Assembly: GCA_963818965.1 (NCBI GenBank)
Contig: CAWFUG010000009.1
Span: 160,001 to 224,000, forward strand
DNA length: 64,000 bases
Direction of reading: 5' to 3'
Origin: an uncultured Verrucomicrobiae bacterium
GTDB taxonomy: Bacteria > Chlamydiota > Chlamydiia > Chlamydiales > Rhabdochlamydiaceae
Of the stretch, positions 6,531 to 61,000 are shown in pieces. A program made the position numbers and the translations under genes. The notes under the pieces were generated by a model. That model was not told the DNA's origin. It did no database searches and saw nothing but the letters and a program-made list of their open reading frames with translations. Every line of letters starts with the position of its first letter. The first letter of the stretch is position 1.

Positions 6531-6606
6531 CTATCCCAGTAAAATTTTTCGTCGATTTTCGGCGCAAAATAATCCCGAAAATCGACGAAAAATTTTACTG
6601 GGATAG
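6531..6606. mobile_element. TA-bounded miniature palindromic element between nrdA and nrdB
   Basis: Perfect 32-bp inverted repeat ctatcccagtaaaatttttcgtcgattttcgg / ccgaaaatcgacgaaaaattttactgggatag with a 12-nt loop. Confidence 0.75.
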
Positions 6607-11043: not shown

Positions 11044-11123
11044 TCACCACAGAGAGAAGAAACCACAGAGAGAAAATAAAAAAATGTACTCTTCCTCTCT
11101 GTGGTTTCCCCTCTCTGTGGTGA
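11044..11123. repeat. ACCACAGAGA-type hairpin repeat (family 2), copy 2
   Basis: tcaccacagagagaagaaaccacagagag...ctctctgtggtttcccctctctgtggtga. Confidence 0.88.
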
Positions 11124-17165: not shown

Positions 17166-17244
17166 ACTCACCACAGAGATGGGAAACCACAGAGGGGAAA
17201 TTTTATGAATTTTCTCTCTGTGGTGTCCCATCTCTGTGGTGAGT
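17166..17244. repeat. ACCACAGAGA-type hairpin repeat (family 2), copy 3, between convergent genes
   Basis: actcaccacagagatgggaaaccacagag / ctctgtggtgtcccatctctgtggtgagt. Confidence 0.88.
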
Positions 17245-18554: not shown

Positions 18555-18674
18555 AAAGTTTTTCTCGTTAGTTTTCGCAACAGCATGACCGATTTTCGAA
18601 AAAAAGAAAAGCGCTGAAACTGCCTTCAGAGGAAAACTCATTTTAATCAATTGATTCTCAATTGGTTATATGTC

Positions 18675-18767
18675 AACCTGGCGAAAAGTCGATTTTTAGC
18701 CCACTTTCCGCCAGTTTGGTGAATCAAACCGGCGGAAAGTGGGAAAAATATTGACTTTTCGCTGGTT
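18675..18767. repeat. Long imperfect intergenic palindrome
   Basis: gcgaaaagtcga...cccactttccgcc.gtttg / caaac.ggcggaaagtggg...ttgacttttcgc. Confidence 0.7.
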
Positions 18768-18806
18768 TGTTTTAATGGAACGTCCAAGAATCTGTCCTAG
18801 GAATAT

Positions 18807-19369
18807 CTATCCGAGGTTTTTTTGAATGACTTCGAAGTCAGACATCTTGGACCAATCGGGAAAGGTCAGTTCCCAGACCCGGTAGATCTTACCTTCTTTG
18901 TATTGGACGATAATGAGGAGTTCGAGTTCCCTTTTCGGCTTGCCTGGCAATTGGGTCGTGATCCACATCCTTCCAGCGACTTTGTCCTCAGACTCTAGGA
19001 AGGTCTCTTCTTGATAGGCGACATGGTATTGGATGGGAGTGGCGTAAATGTCTTGATGCCCTTCCAGAAGCTGTCGGTAGTCCATCGTGTGACCATTAGC
19101 ATAGAGCAAAAAATCGGGATGGTAGAATTCCTCGATTTATACCCCGCGCGCTTGAGGATGGTGCATTTGAGCCGCGTGAAAGCTCCCGCGGTTCGACGAT
19201 CGGAAATGGGGGTTGTATTTCATCAATACTACCCCCATTTCCGATCGTCGAACCCCGGGGCTTTGACGCGCTCAAATGCACCATCCTCAAGCGCGCGGGG
19301 TATAGACGCATTCTTTTGAACCGTCACTTCCTCGAACATCTTTTTTAATTTTTCTATTTTTGAATTCAT
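18807..19369 (-). pseudogene. SnoaL/NTF2-like protein gene interrupted by a 167-bp palindromic element
   Basis: MNSKIEKLKKMFEEVTVQKNAS upstream of the element and IEEFYHPDFLLYANGHTMDY...GKIYRVWELTFPDW downstream; the element brings an in-frame TAG and the halves are out of frame. Confidence 0.75.
19138..19304. mobile_element. TATAC...GTATA palindromic miniature element (family 1), full-length copy A
   Basis: Perfect 35-bp terminal inverted repeat tataccccgcgcgcttgaggatggtgcatttgagc plus a perfect 23-bp inner stem; 167 bp. Confidence 0.92.
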
Positions 19370-28423: not shown

Positions 28424-29281
28424 ATGAAAAAGACGTTGTTGATTTCTGTCATTGCTCTTTGTGTAACGGCAATTGTGATCGTATCGATTGTGGTTGCCTT
28501 TCGAGAAAAGAAAGAGCGCGACTTCATTACCTTGTATGGGAATGTCGATGTCCGCCAGGTCGACATCGGATTTCGGGTAGCGGGTCAAGTGACAGAATTG
28601 TTCTTCGAAGAGGGGGATGTCGTCAGAGAAGGGGACTTGATGTGCGTCTTAAGTACAACCCCCTACGATAGTCAGCTCGATGAGGCGATTGCTCTAAAAG
28701 AGGCGATTGCGGTGAATTTGGAGAATGCAGAGATCCTGTTGCGTCGGCGTGTGGAGTTGGTGGATGTGGGGGCTGTTTCGCAAGAAGATGTCGATAATGC
28801 GCTTGCTAATCGAAACCAGCTCATCGCAAATTTGGCACAGGCGGACTCGGCCATCCTCGTAGCCCGCGACAATTTGACTTACACGAGAGCCTATGCGCCG
28901 ACCGATGGGATTTTGCTCACGCGGATCCGGGAACCGGGAACAGTGGTCAACCCGGCTGATCCCGTCTACACGCTCTCTGTCAGCTCTCCTGTCTGGATCC
29001 GTGCTTTTGTCGATGAACCTGATTTAGGCACTGTCTATTACGGAATGCATGCAGAGGTATTCACCGATATCAAAGGGGGCAAGAGCTACCCCGGGACGAT
29101 CGGATTCATTTCTCCCGTCGCAGAATTTACACCCAAAACAGTCGAAAGTACGCAGTTGCGCACCGATCTCGTCTATCGCCTGCGCATCTATGTCGACAAT
29201 CCAGATCGAGGACTCGTCCAGGGGATGCCCGTCACTGTCAAACTCGATTTGAGGAGACAGCACGATGTTATACCGAAATAA
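28424..29281 (+). CDS. HlyD/membrane-fusion protein (YbhG-like)
   Basis: LYGNVDVRQV, APTDG, ISPVAEFTPKTV..LRTDLVYR, GMPVTV; current stop codon lies within an inserted element. Confidence 0.9.
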   Translation: MKKTLLISVIALCVTAIVIVSIVVAFREKKERDFITLYGNVDVRQVDIGFRVAGQVTELFFEEGDVVREGDLMCVLSTTPYDSQLDEAIALKEAIAVNLENAEILLRRRVELVDVGAVSQEDVDNALANRNQLIANLAQADSAILVARDNLTYTRAYAPTDGILLTRIREPGTVVNPADPVYTLSVSSPVWIRAFVDEPDLGTVYYGMHAEVFTDIKGGKSYPGTIGFISPVAEFTPKTVESTQLRTDLVYRLRIYVDNPDRGLVQGMPVTVKLDLRRQHDVIPK

Positions 29282-31199
29282 TACCAATCCTCGAAAACAA
29301 CCTGCATTTCAGCTGCGTCGAATCCCGGCGCTTTCACGCGCTCAAATGCAGGTTATTTTCGAGGATTGGTATAACTTGAAGAATCGGGTTTTGGCGGCGT
29401 CGGCTTTATCCCAGAATTTTTGTTTTCACTCGCGCCTTGTCTCTCGGCAATGGTCGCTCGCTCCAAACAAAAATTCTGGGGGGCCTCCTTGTCAAAATCC
29501 CGATTCTTCAAGTTATTTCGATATGGTCGAGATTAAAGGGCTTTCCAAAAGATTTCCAAAAACCTCCTCAGATGCCATCAAACGGCTCGACGCCTCTTTC
29601 CCGACAGGTAAAATCATAGGGCTAGTGGGGCCTGATGGCGCAGGGAAGACGACGTTGATCCGCTTGATCGCCGCTCTTTTGACTCCTACGGAAGGCGCGA
29701 TCTCGATTAAAGGATTGGATACAGTAAAAGACAGAGAGCAGATTCCTCATTTGATAGGCTATATGCCTCAAAAGTTCGGGCTCTACGAAGATCTCACGGT
29801 GCAGCAGAATCTCGATCTCTACGCCGATTTAAAAAATGTGGTGGGGGAAGAGAAGCGCGCGACTTGTGAAAAGCTCCTTCACTTCACCGCGCTCGAGCCT
29901 TTTACAGGCAGGTTGGCAAAAAATCTCTCGGGTGGGATGAAGCAAAAACTCGGCCTCGCTTGTGCCCTGATCAAAAAACCGACCCTGCTCCTGCTCGATG
30001 AACCCAGCGTCGGCGTCGATCCCGTCTCGCGGCGCGAACTGTGGAAAATGGTGAAGGATCTACTCGATGAGGGGATCTCCGTGCTGTGGAGCACGGCTTA
30101 TCTCGAAGAGGCGGAACAGTGCGATCACGTACTTTTGTTAAATGAGGGGAAGCTCCTCTACAGCGGAGACCCCAAACAGCTGACGGAAAAGATGGAAGGG
30201 AGGACCTTTGCGATCGAGGAGACAGATCGCCGTGCACTTTTGTTTACTTTGCTTAAAAACAAAGAGGTCATAGATGGGGTCATTCAGGGAAGCACGGTAC
30301 GCGTTCTATTGCGGGACAAGAATATTTTAAGCGGATACCCAGCGCTCCATGCTGTTCCGCCTCGCTTTGAAGATGGGTTCATCGACATTTTAGGGGGTGG
30401 GCCTGGAGGAGAATCGCAGCTTGCCGACAGAGCGCCTCTCGTTACAAAAAAGGGGGACACGCCGATCGTTGCGGAGAATGTGACCAAGCGGTTTGGAGAC
30501 TTTGTCGCGGTCGATGATATCTCCCTCTCTGTCCGAAGAGGAGAGATCTTCGGCTTATTAGGACCCAATGGTGCGGGGAAGACGACGCTGTTTAAGATGC
30601 TCTGTGGTCTCCTCCATCCGACATCGGGAAAAGCCCAGGTCGACGGGGTCGATTTAGAGACGTCTGTCAAGCCGCGCAGAGAGATCGGCTACATGGCTCA
30701 AAAATTTTCCCTCTATGGCAATTTGAGCGTCTATCAGAATTTGGAGTTTTTCTCCGGAATTTATGGCCTTACCCTCAAGGAGCAAAGGGTCGCTGTTGCA
30801 GAAATGCTAGAGATTTTCGATTTGCAGAAATACCGCGATACCTCTTCAGAATTGCTTCCCTTGGGTTATAAACAGAGACTGAGTCTTGCCTGTGCGAACA
30901 TGCACCACCCGCAGGTGCTGTTTCTCGATGAGCCTACATCGGGTGTCGATCCGATCGTCCGCCGGGAGTTCTGGAACCACATCAATGGCCTCGTGAGAAG
31001 GGGAGTGACCGTGATGATCACGACCCACTTTATGGAAGAAGCGGAATACTGCGACAGAATCGCCCTGATCTATCAAGGCAAAATCATCCAGATGGACACG
31101 CCAGATGGCCTCAAAGAGAGCGTCAAATCACCCGAACTGCCCAACCCGACCCTAGAAGATGCATTCATCAAGAAGATAGAAGAGTACGATGCGAAATAA
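29265..31199 (+). CDS. Dual-domain ABC ATPase (YbhF-like); the 85 codons after Met-Leu are element-derived, alternative start ATG at 29523
   Basis: GPDGAGKTT, LSGGMKQKL, LDEPSVGVDP; GPNGAGKTT, LPLGYKQRL, LDEPTSGVDP. Confidence 0.92.
   Translation: MLYRNNTNPRKQPAFQLRRIPALSRAQMQVIFEDWYNLKNRVLAASALSQNFCFHSRLVSRQWSLAPNKNSGGPPCQNPDSSSYFDMVEIKGLSKRFPKTSSDAIKRLDASFPTGKIIGLVGPDGAGKTTLIRLIAALLTPTEGAISIKGLDTVKDREQIPHLIGYMPQKFGLYEDLTVQQNLDLYADLKNVVGEEKRATCEKLLHFTALEPFTGRLAKNLSGGMKQKLGLACALIKKPTLLLLDEPSVGVDPVSRRELWKMVKDLLDEGISVLWSTAYLEEAEQCDHVLLLNEGKLLYSGDPKQLTEKMEGRTFAIEETDRRALLFTLLKNKEVIDGVIQGSTVRVLLRDKNILSGYPALHAVPPRFEDGFIDILGGGPGGESQLADRAPLVTKKGDTPIVAENVTKRFGDFVAVDDISLSVRRGEIFGLLGPNGAGKTTLFKMLCGLLHPTSGKAQVDGVDLETSVKPRREIGYMAQKFSLYGNLSVYQNLEFFSGIYGLTLKEQRVAVAEMLEIFDLQKYRDTSSELLPLGYKQRLSLACANMHHPQVLFLDEPTSGVDPIVRREFWNHINGLVRRGVTVMITTHFMEEAEYCDRIALIYQGKIIQMDTPDGLKESVKSPELPNPTLEDAFIKKIEEYDAK
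29269..29525. mobile_element. Outer TA-bounded palindromic element (164 bp) carrying a nested insertion
   Basis: Left arm tataccgaaataa|cttgaagaatcgggttttg pairs with caaaatcccgattcttcaagttatttcgatat; inner 16-bp stem cccagaatttttgttt / aaacaaaaattctggg. Confidence 0.85.
29279..29373. mobile_element. Nested family 1 element, 95 bp (internal-deletion derivative)
   Basis: ataccaatcctcgaaaacaacctgcattt / aaatgcaggttattttcgaggattggtat; shares the cccggcgctttcacgcgctcaaatgca core with copies at 19138 and 60502. Confidence 0.88.
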
Positions 31200-32325: not shown

Positions 32326-33476
32326 GACAGGTTTTCATCCTCATTTGGAAAGAGCTTTTGACTGTGTTGCGCGACCAGAAAGTGCGCATTTCGATTTTAT
32401 TGCCCCCGCTCATTCAGCTCTTCGTCTTCACATTTGCCGCAACGCTCGATGTCAAAGATGTCCCGATCGGCATTTTGAATCGGGACTCAGGAGAGAAGGC
32501 CTTTGAGCTTGTCGAAAGATTTTACGGGACGAAGATCTTCAACAACAAGATCATCTTCCTCAAAGGGGTCGAACAGATCGCCCCTTTCATGGATACCCAG
32601 AAAGGAGTGATGGTGGTCTCCATCGATGAGCAATTCTCCCGCAATCTCGACGCTGGAAAACCCGCAGATATTCAGCTCATCTTAGACGGAAGAAAGACGA
32701 ACACCGCACAAATCGTCGCAGGTTATACACAGGAGATCATCAACCGCTTTAACAACGACTACACCGCACAGGCAGATTTATACCCTGCGCGCTCAAATGC
32801 ACCATCCTCAAGCGCGCGGGGTATAAAAACACAAAACATAGAACTCGTTCCACGCACCTGGTTCAATCCGAATATCCTCTATTTTTGGTACAATATCCCC
32901 TGTCTCGTCTGTGTCCTTTCGATGCTGATCTGTCTCGTCGTCACGACACAATCGGTAGCCAGAGAGCGGGAACTCGGCACCTTCGATCAGCTCCTCGTCT
33001 CGCCCCTGACTCCCCGAGTGATTTTGATCGGTAAAGTCGTCCCCGGCGTCATCGTCGGCTTTTGCGAAGGGCTCGTGATGCTCATCATCGGAACCTGCGT
33101 CTTCGGCGTGCCCTTTATGGGATCTTTGCCCCTGTTTTTATTTAGCCTCATCATCTTCGTCAGCTCGATCTGCGGCGTCGGCCTCTTTATCTCCTCCCTC
33201 TCTGCAACCCAGCAGCAGGCGATGCTCGGGACATTTGTCTTCATGCTCCCCTCCGTGCTCCTCTCAGGCTTTGCGACCCCGATCGAAAACATGCCCACCT
33301 GGCTCCAGCCCGTGACTTACCTTATCCCCCTTCGGTACATGCTCGTCATCTCGAAGGGGATTTTCCTCAAAGCGATGCCCGCTAGGATCGTCCTAGAAAA
33401 CCTCTGGCCCCTCTGCGTGATCGGCCTATGCAATGGCCTAGGGGCAGCTCTATTTTTCCGCAGGAGGCTCCCATGA
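32322..33476 (+). CDS. ABC-2 permease (YbhR-like) with a 15-aa element-derived insertion
   Basis: KELLTVLRD, VARERELGTFDQLLVSP, LSGFATPIENMP; TTG start overlapping the upstream TGA. Confidence 0.9.
   Translation: MRQVFILIWKELLTVLRDQKVRISILLPPLIQLFVFTFAATLDVKDVPIGILNRDSGEKAFELVERFYGTKIFNNKIIFLKGVEQIAPFMDTQKGVMVVSIDEQFSRNLDAGKPADIQLILDGRKTNTAQIVAGYTQEIINRFNNDYTAQADLYPARSNAPSSSARGIKTQNIELVPRTWFNPNILYFWYNIPCLVCVLSMLICLVVTTQSVARERELGTFDQLLVSPLTPRVILIGKVVPGVIVGFCEGLVMLIIGTCVFGVPFMGSLPLFLFSLIIFVSSICGVGLFISSLSATQQQAMLGTFVFMLPSVLLSGFATPIENMPTWLQPVTYLIPLRYMLVISKGIFLKAMPARIVLENLWPLCVIGLCNGLGAALFFRRRLP
32779..32825. mobile_element. 47-bp internally deleted family 1 element, in frame in the permease gene
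   Basis: tataccctgcgcgctcaaatgcaccatcctcaagcgcgcggggtata; right 38 nt identical to copy A at 19267-19304. Confidence 0.92.
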
Positions 33477-59985: not shown

Positions 59986-61000
59986 ATGCTCTTATTCTTC
60001 CTTCGACTGTTCCTATTGTTGCTCACTCCTTCTTTTTTTCTCTATTCGCTCGATGTTCTTAATTATGACTTGCATGTTTTTTCTGTGCCGGGAAAGAGCG
60101 AACGGGTGATGCTCTGTTTCCATGGCTATGGAGGTAATTACGAGATTGCCTTGTCGCTTAAAAATCTAAAAACCATAGACGCTACTCTTGTGAGCTTCAA
60201 CTTTCCTGATTATGACATTGAGCAAAGAGGTGAGTACGATTATCGCAAGATGACATTTGGCACGATCGATGAGCTTTTGCCAGCTCTGCACGTCATGAAG
60301 CAGATCGTGCTGGATGGGGGAAGAAAAAGAGATCGATCTGTATGGATTTTCTGCAGGGGGCGGCGTTTTGATCAACGTACTTGGAGTGCTCAATACTTCC
60401 ACTTATGATGCTAGGCTTGAGGCAATGGGGATTGGAGCGGTGGAAAAAGAGAAGCTTCTCGCTGCAATTCAGAGGGGAATGGTGATTTTGGATACGCCTC
60501 TTATACTGCGCCCGGTCAGGAATTGCGAATTTGAGCCTTTGATCAGCTCCCGCGATTCCACGATCGAAAAGGGGGCCAGTATTGAGGAAATACAGGCCCC
60601 CTTTTCGATCGTGGAATCCCGGGGCTTTGACGCGCTCAAATTCACAATTCCTGACCGGGCGCAGTATAAATCGATCGAAGAGATCATTGCCTGTAGAAGC
60701 TCGACGGGTGAATTGGAGTGGTTGGCGAAAAATTATCGGGACAATCACTTCAGACCGATTGACTCGCTTAGATTGCTCCAGGGATTGTCTTTGGATGTTT
60801 TGTTGTATTTTCAGGAGGGAGATGAAATTCTCTCGAATCGAGATGATGACCTGTATATAGAGAGGTTGCGAGAGACTCAGCAAAAAATCGCAGTGATCAG
60901 GGGCAGTGAAGGGGGACATCAGTCTGCTCACCTGCCACTTTGGCAATTTTATGCGCAAAAAATGGAGGGAGAAGATGTTGGCACAACAGTATTGGAATGA
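59986..61000 (+). CDS. Secreted alpha/beta hydrolase, +1 frameshift in G5 run at 60316-60320 and 55-aa element insertion
   Basis: CFHGYGG in the first ORF; IDLYGFSAGGG, D..L and GGH in the second ORF; frames join if one G is removed. Confidence 0.7.
60502..60668. mobile_element. Family 1 palindromic element, full-length copy B, in frame
   Basis: 34/35 terminal inverted repeat tatactgcgcccggtcaggaattgcgaatttgagc, perfect 24-bp inner stem, 167 bp; removal with one TA restores LDTPLKSIEE. Confidence 0.93.

Follow-up and report, generated by a model that had tools for sequence, protein, structure and literature searches.

Matched, fast-evolving arms and a conserved mismatched core in foldback MITEs of environmental chlamydiae, probably moved by IS630-family transposases

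Three repeats, here denoted A, B and C, that are found in a 64,000-nt stretch of a chlamydial genome (hereinafter the window, G000:C9:160001-224000, that is, part of contig C9 of the source assembly G000, which amounts to 2.24 Mb in 12 contigs and is 87.85% complete) are foldback MITEs belonging to a chlamydial superfamily of elements of about 165 nt, with deletion derivatives of 47-97 nt. Complementarity, beyond any fixed sequence of the terminal inverted repeats (TIRs), is conserved in these elements, both in the outer arms and in the inner stem. Taken as a whole, the observations are probably best explained by a superfamily of foldback MITEs that has been moved by IS630-family transposases and in which the two halves of each element are kept matched at the DNA level. 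What appears to be new here is an IS630-type MITE superfamily in environmental chlamydiae that combines a conserved mismatched core with fast-evolving matched arms.

The copies in the window and their parts are listed below; in the motifs, a slash separates the flanking TA from the element.
19138-19304, no strand: copy A, full length, 167 nt including the flanking TA at each end (TA/TAC...GTA/TA), a single long hairpin
19138-19172, no strand: left outer arm (TIR) of copy A, A type, 35/35 complementary to 19270-19304
19270-19304, no strand: right outer arm (TIR) of copy A, partner of 19138-19172
19173-19191, plus strand: left half of the internal loop of copy A, CGCGTGAAAGCTCCCGCGG, with one G·G and one C·C mismatch against the right half, and with two extra bases
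19253-19269, plus strand: right half of the internal loop of copy A, CCCCGGGGCTTTGACGC
19185-19259, no strand: inner stem and terminal loop of copy A, with 35-nt arms (19185-19219 and 19225-19259) that are 94% complementary
60502-60668, no strand: copy B, full length, with B-type arms that pair at 34/35 positions
29280-29373, no strand: copy C, a 92-nt short form (ATAC..GTAT) without the inner hairpin
32779-32825, no strand: mini-element of A type, 47 nt, with 14-nt terminal stems and a loop that is the inner part of one arm; a deletion derivative
25554-25618, no strand: short element of another arm type (TATACCCAAGTGGACTCAAAAG...), consisting of arms and a remnant of the internal loop
41150-41207, no strand: degenerate fragment that includes the right part of the inner stem, one internal-loop half and part of an arm

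The original prediction, which was made for this stretch of DNA, stated that the arms diverge between copies and nevertheless pair with their own partners, and the values that it gave for A (35/35) and B (34/35) were recovered. The arms of copy C are strongly self-complementary as well, although the count is 30/33 (or 31/35) and not the 31/33 initially reported, and the 11 differences between the A and B arm strings are spread over 23 positions rather than 22. The predicted free energies of the single-stranded DNA folds are -99.0, -80.0 and -36.2 kcal/mol for A, B and C, respectively.

Copy A, located upstream of an MFS transporter gene, separates a 100-aa ORF from the gene for an ABC-F ATPase (19389-21269, minus strand), and copy C occupies the junction of an HlyD-family gene and an ABC transporter gene. 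The ORF that contains copy B (60314-61000, plus strand) has no match in Pfam and reads through the element in frame, which adds a net 165 nt, or 55 codons. The host gene of copy B (window positions 59986-61000) appears to be split by a frameshift near 60314-60408, and its two overlapping ORFs together read as hydrolase-like (a GFSAGG motif noticed by eye). Seven of the 58 full-length copies in the genome are embedded in reading frames that stay open for at least 60 codons on each side, and 43 of the 58 have a length divisible by 3.

A blastn search of the whole source assembly with A, B and C yielded 124 loci. When the 2.24-Mb assembly was scanned for pairs of ATAC...GTAT in which at least 20 of the next 24 nt are complementary, 83 hairpins of 57-169 nt were obtained, most often 165 nt (21 copies), 166 nt (8 copies) or 168 nt (20 copies) long; altogether, arms occur 347 times in the assembly. 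In addition to A, B and C, at least seven other arm types are carried on the common core. The four short forms of C type found in the genome are all of the same length (92 nt), and short forms of 57-97 nt in general retain pieces of the internal loop and resemble internal deletions. Such deletion forms recur at short direct repeats: among the 25 inspected loci with a solo arm, 11 turned out to be one recurrent mini-form of 47-51 nt produced by deletion between CGCGC repeats. Nested insertion, with a mobile core entering arm-only palindromes, was rejected as the source of these forms on account of the retained, deletion-like pieces of the internal loop, and is also unneeded given that a single conversion tract explains the swap of cores between conserved loop motifs.

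Several other repeats of the same genome deserve mention. A second hairpin family (ATACCCCTTCCACCTCAATCGTA...), present in about 19 copies of 166-169 nt (mostly 168 nt; e.g., G000:C9:84100-84267, C9:7833-8000 and C1:74567-74734, all outside the window), is unrelated in sequence but similar in its ends, length and layout; its inner stem exists in two variants, set apart by compensated patches, and a flipped loop was also found. Another hairpin repeat, with CCACAGAGAG motifs, is located in the window at 17166-17244, 21207-21278 and 11044-11123, and elsewhere often adjoins TATAC elements. Two palindromes in the window, at 6531-6606 (32-nt arms, 100% complementary) and at 18674-18769 (45-nt arms, 82%; 370 nt from copy A), belong to different sequence families.

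A structural alignment of the copies, which the original prediction had proposed as a check, was built from 42 full-length copies that were oriented by the asymmetry of the internal loop (20 in one orientation, 18 in the other and 4 unassigned), and the covariation in it is far above that in shuffled alignments. Among the 52 pairs identified by RNAalifold, 36 changed on both sides with the pairing kept. Paired cells make up 96.1% of the stem, compared to 78.0 +/- 0.5% in 500 column shuffles, none of which reached the observed value, with the caveat that kinship alone can beat column shuffles in the absence of any structure; cells changed on both sides number 405 compared to 122.6 in the shuffles, and a shift of the partners by 1-3 columns lowers the paired cells to 35-50%. 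This caveat is answered by the independent lineages: the arms of 62 non-redundant elements from other genomes are unlike one another and still are 92.6% paired over a median of 39.5 arm positions.

The changes extend along the entire hairpin. In the outer arm, 15 of the 19 pairs changed on both sides; in the internal loop and inner stem, the same is true of 17 of the 28 pairs, with 97.1% of the cells paired, so the claim that differences in the inner stem are compensated too has held up. The compensated changes include transversions and adjacent double changes, such as AA to TT opposite TT to AA in the copy at C2:34953, and the second family contains compensated patches of GA to TC. Variants within a single arm type (TTGAGGA, TTAGGAA, CTAGGAA and TTAAGAA) are each compensated. 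The asymmetric internal loop is conserved as initially proposed: its G·G and C·C mismatches, about ten pairs apart and accompanied by extra bases on one side, were found in the source genome as unlike half-sites in 28 of the 29 copies in which both sides were scorable. The terminal loop of the inner stem, in turn, occurs in both orientations among the copies. The proposal that structure rather than TIR sequence is maintained is thus borne out to the extent that complementarity itself is conserved, in the outer arms and in the inner stem alike.

Outside the source genome, the core of copy A (approximately positions 28-132) has matches in 15 of the 40 relatives, which represent several families of the order. 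An exact pattern derived from both loop halves occurs in at least 118 stretches of the species collection, and the 80 matches listed are all titled as chlamydial groups or are evidently mislabelled bins. In the relatives, conservation is highest in the loop halves (GYGTGAAAGCTCCCGCGG and CCCCGGGGCTTTGRCGC), whereas the arms and termini vary. The termini in these genomes include TA/TAC, TA/GTAC within CTAG, and others; accordingly, the terminal TATAC, which had been described as conserved, is so in the source genome, where T precedes ATAC in 76 of the 83 copies and A follows GTAT in 75 of the 83, but not in related genomes. A same-genus relative (G001) was considered as a source of orthologous insertions and discarded, being 69-78% identical and not syntenic. 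A further genome from the same family (G074) carries AT-rich hairpin repeats of the form TATAC...GTATA next to an IS630 copy (L210:2133-2404) and gave no match to the core of copy A.

The elements fit the description of MITEs: they are short, non-coding and multicopy, and possess terminal inverted repeats with TA on both sides. TA is present on both sides of 69 of the 83 copies, so that each element reads TAC...GTA between two TA; two pairs of elements abut with a common TA, and the relatives of the TA/GTAC type are likewise flanked by TA. A contig of low depth from a peat metagenome, about 88% similar to the window, follows the left flank of copy A up to 19138 and then has 16 further letters, 14 of which agree with 19303-19318; this contig gives a weak hint of what may be an empty site in a relative. 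The IS630 family targets and duplicates TA, and an IS630 element, IS630-Spn1, is associated with the RUP repeats of pneumococcus (PMC2229807, in excerpt). DDE_3 transposases are encoded in 63 of the 201 genomes of the order, often in multiple copies. The ends of the respective ISs, which were located through comparison of IS copies, start with TATACC or TATAG, and an H-type arm of the source genome matches the left terminus of a 1760-bp IS carried by a relative (G195) at 20 of the 30 positions beyond ATAC, a value that was not reached in any of 500 shuffles across 43 arms and 16 ends. G195 also contains elements that bear the core but whose arms do not resemble the ends of its IS. By eye, an IS end of another relative (G095) and the C arm have TCGAAAATAA in common, and the arms of the second family (F2) resemble, by eye only, an IS630 end of a third one (G092), in which the IS ends were found only in IS copies and no MITE with those ends was detected.

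Within the source assembly, an intact IS630 transposase was not found: there are no DDE_3 matches in these 87.85% of the genome, so an unassembled IS is possible. A tblastn search of the assembly with ten ORFs from six IS loci of the relatives (the longest two per locus) revealed a decayed C-terminal remnant of an IS630 transposase at G000:C9:237656-237866 (E 1.4e-8; LPPYSPNL with stops) and no other transposase-like region; one of the queries, from the G195 locus, was not a transposase and matched an unrelated place. By eye, the end beside the remnant (TATAGTGCTTCCA; TATAGTGCTTCCAGTTCC) is similar to the second-family arms. Together with the TATAGTGCTTCCA end, the remnant spans G000:C9:237533-237866 and is located 13.5 kb past the end of the window. 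DDE_3 is absent also from the element-rich relatives G007, G017, G020, G023 and G032. No pair of like arms that encloses a transposase gene was found in the source genome. Two candidates for an autonomous IS were rejected, one being the arm pair at C4:10235/12634, which belongs to a large inverted duplication with antitoxin-like ORFs, and the other a 1118-nt pair of like arms at C11:148638, which encloses a hydrolase-like ORF of 285 aa. The former locus (G000:C4:10235-12634, L001) is a perfect 2.4-kb inverted duplication of small ORFs, in which an antitoxin-like ORF is interrupted by a truncated element, and may be an assembly artefact.

The reading that we favor can be outlined as follows. 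The elements insert at TA and duplicate it, with the outer arms acting as TIRs of the IS630/Tc1-mariner kind, and are most likely mobilized in trans by DDE transposases of the IS630 family, which are common in the order and of which only a decayed remnant survives in the source assembly. The arms have diverged into many types, each self-complementary, and the inner stem has remained so as well; propagation together with palindrome processes at the DNA level would jointly keep the halves matched: elements with two matched ends capable of folding back would multiply, and recombination between the halves, along with gap repair or gene conversion among copies, would transfer changes from one half to the other. 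In short, we envisage selection for two matched, foldable ends, supplemented by occasional conversion between halves and among copies. Within subfamilies, the terminal loop is flipped relative to the internal loop (4:5 in A and 10:2 in B), which implies that the halves recombine or switch template. A core with 97% identity over 98 nt can be found between arms that, by eye, are only about 40% alike, and conversion of the tract at the centre, bounded by the conserved loop motifs, would best explain this. Chimeras were identified as well, with an A-type left half and an E-type right half, and with a C-type left half and an E-type right half; in the respective copies (G000:C8:186940-187071 and G000:C9:261386-261519), the left half is joined to the E-type right half at the loop, and the arms are mismatched. 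The recurrent microhomology deletions at short direct repeats are a further sign of such processes at the DNA level. Given that the short forms without the inner hairpin have apparently multiplied, the arms should suffice for movement, and full folding would at most help.

It is possible, if hardly likely, that folding plays a more direct role, in that the conserved mismatched loop and the freely covarying stems mark a substrate read by its shape, and that transposition starts from an extruded cruciform or a single-strand hairpin that joins the TA-flanked ends, with the G·G/C·C loop recognized by the transposase or a host factor, or else that the core is a domesticated chlamydial hairpin module carried on interchangeable IS630-type ends. 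Recognition of this loop would amount to a structure-dependent branch of TA-targeting DDE transposition. A reading of the internal loop as a promoter or an IHF site was considered separately and dropped after inspection by eye.

The original prediction regarded the maintenance of structure as unusual for a classical MITE, a view that does not hold up given the TA flanks, the likeness of the H arm to an IS630-family end and the hint of an empty site. Could the arm types, then, be ordinary MITE subfamilies, each of which tracks the binding preference of its own IS630 transposase, so that both arms converge on the best site in the absence of any hairpin or copying? The TA flanks speak for this explanation, as do the significant similarity of the H arm (and that, by eye, of the arms of the other family) to IS630 ends, the many IS630 lineages with different ends in the order and the multiplication of short, nearly arm-only forms. 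Furthermore, mariner elements that carry the better-bound end twice transpose far better. The arm types were expected, under this explanation, to match the TIRs of distinct autonomous ISs; matches of this kind are seen for the H arm and, by eye, for the arms of the second family, but not for the A and B arms, given that the source assembly yielded no IS whose ends are of A or B type and that the A/B arm pattern, with 103 occurrences in the source genome, is absent from all 400 other genomes of the order in which it was sought. The inner stem, which is distant from the ends, covaries as strongly as the arms, and a terminal transposase site cannot explain this; the compensation seen in each variant of a single arm type, and the coexistence of at least ten arm types in one 2.2-Mb genome without an intact transposase, likewise do not fit. 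Moreover, the ISs themselves tolerate dissimilar ends: in eight related IS630 ISs, the two ends are alike at 20-30 of the 35 positions (57-86%), compared to 92-100% for the matched MITE arms. Taken together with the covariation of the inner stem, this indicates that the matching of the halves is kept beyond what the transposase needs, and we consider it doubtful that ordinary subfamilies account for the data.

Mechanical copying from arm to arm, by template switching or recombination of inverted halves and with no selection on folding, likewise appears to be an unlikely sole explanation, even though it readily accommodates the flipped terminal loops, the compensated transversions and adjacent double changes, the lack of strand bias in the type of mismatch (see below) and the number of distinct changes within arm clusters, 61 of which are compensated compared to 53 single-sided ones. 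Blind copying should erase the G·G and C·C loop mismatches, yet these persist in nearly all scorable copies of the source genome and across genera. Besides, uncompensated changes do occur, namely stem changes in 3 of the 11 mini-elements and one arm change between the copies at C7:69328 and C8:17966. These two copies (G000:C7:69328-69493 and G000:C8:17966-18131) represent a single element that recurs on two contigs together with identical flanks, which points to either a duplicated segment or redundancy of the assembly. In a subfamily from another genome, a T·G mismatch recurs in the arms and two polymorphic sites vary independently between the arms, so that arm copying is not obligatory at each move.

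The original prediction allowed either arm-to-arm copying or selection on an RNA or single-stranded DNA hairpin, and of these options the RNA one fares poorly. A hairpin selected in RNA, as a terminator, an RNase III site or a small RNA, for which the DNA elements would be retained, is consistent with the very stable predicted fold, with the conservation of the core across chlamydial families and with one T·G position that is conserved on one oriented strand in 33 of 41 rows; transcripts of MITEs that form such structures are also known (PMC10969869, in excerpt). However, there is no excess of G·U-compatible mismatches: the single-sided changes in the source genome comprise 20 G·T and 19 A·C, and the arm mismatches in the relatives 55 G·T and 51 A·C, the near equality of which argues against selection at the RNA level and for a structure that is kept in DNA. 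A cruder count of all mismatches in the copies of the source genome, which is uncorrected for shared ancestry, gives 46 G·T and 27 A·C. In addition, the embedded copies occur in both orientations with respect to the host ORF (five the same, two opposite), the G·G and C·C mismatches do not distinguish one strand from the other, and an Rfam search returned nothing at the gathering threshold, the best match being mir-1304 with 43.7 bits compared to the required 90. Altogether, an RNA function appears very unlikely.

The IS200/IS605 class is characterized by asymmetric ends and by insertion without target duplication. That the imperfect hairpin is read by an HUH/Y1 enzyme, an option also raised originally, with the elements (REPIN/RAYT-like or IS200/IS605-derived) serving as its substrates for single-strand transposition, is highly improbable, notwithstanding the conserved mismatches and extra bases of this hairpin, the greater conservation of structure than of sequence and the presence of Y1_Tnp genes in two element-bearing relatives (G023 and G032), because no match to Y1_Tnp (PF01797) was detected in the source genome or in G007, G017 and G020, nine inspected Y1 loci had no flanking elements beyond chance neighbours, the symmetric ends and TA duplication do not fit the class, and the two orientations are nearly equally frequent among the aligned copies.

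With mobilization by IS630-family transposases and maintenance at the DNA level as the probable explanation, the environmental chlamydiae gain a MITE superfamily with an identifiable IS630-type parentage. The usual pattern of MITEs is inverted here, in that the interior is conserved across families and the ends evolve fast yet remain matched, and the superfamily could serve as a natural system for testing whether very short DNA transposons must fold to join their ends and how palindromes keep their halves alike. The annotation of genomes is affected as well, through copies that lie in frame inside genes, assembly breaks and chimeras.

Several known systems resemble these elements in part. REPIN/RAYT and the GTAG/CGTC-tagged REPs also form hairpin doublets with a conserved shape; these depend on a Y1 (RAYT) gene and on a head that reads GTAG or CGTC, whereas the source genome has no Y1_Tnp and the chlamydial elements end in TATAC...GTATA, with no such head. 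Stowaway and MADE1 are palindromic MITEs of eukaryotes derived from Tc1/mariner that duplicate TA, fold into hairpins and consist almost entirely of two long matched TIRs. They share TA duplication and long matched TIRs with the chlamydial elements, the difference being their eukaryotic hosts, and among them we are aware of no description of a mismatched internal loop that is conserved next to fast-evolving arms. Our literature search returned no description of chlamydial MITEs or palindromic repeats. As judged by analogy, RUP with IS630-Spn1 appears to be the closest described bacterial case, and the Rickettsia palindromic elements (RPE) the closest in behaviour. The RPE, according to excerpts of two accounts (PMC2229807, PMC10969869), are palindromes of about 100-150 bp in an obligate intracellular host that occur in frame in protein genes and for which no transposase has been identified. 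The host belongs to another phylum, and the likeness is one of description; in addition, the chlamydial family has clear TA flanks and IS630-like ends, whereas TA ends are reported for only some RPE (PMC2229807, Table 1, in excerpt). RUP, in turn, is a short non-coding repeat of pneumococcus that has IS630-like TIRs, inserts at TA and exists in about a hundred copies of several subtypes, with IS630-Spn1 as the proposed mover (PMC2229807, in excerpt). Compared to RUP, the chlamydial elements have no cognate IS that was found in the same genome, are about 165 nt long with a hairpin along the whole length, possess highly divergent arm types and are in some copies read through in frame, and their conserved mismatched core is common to a whole bacterial group.
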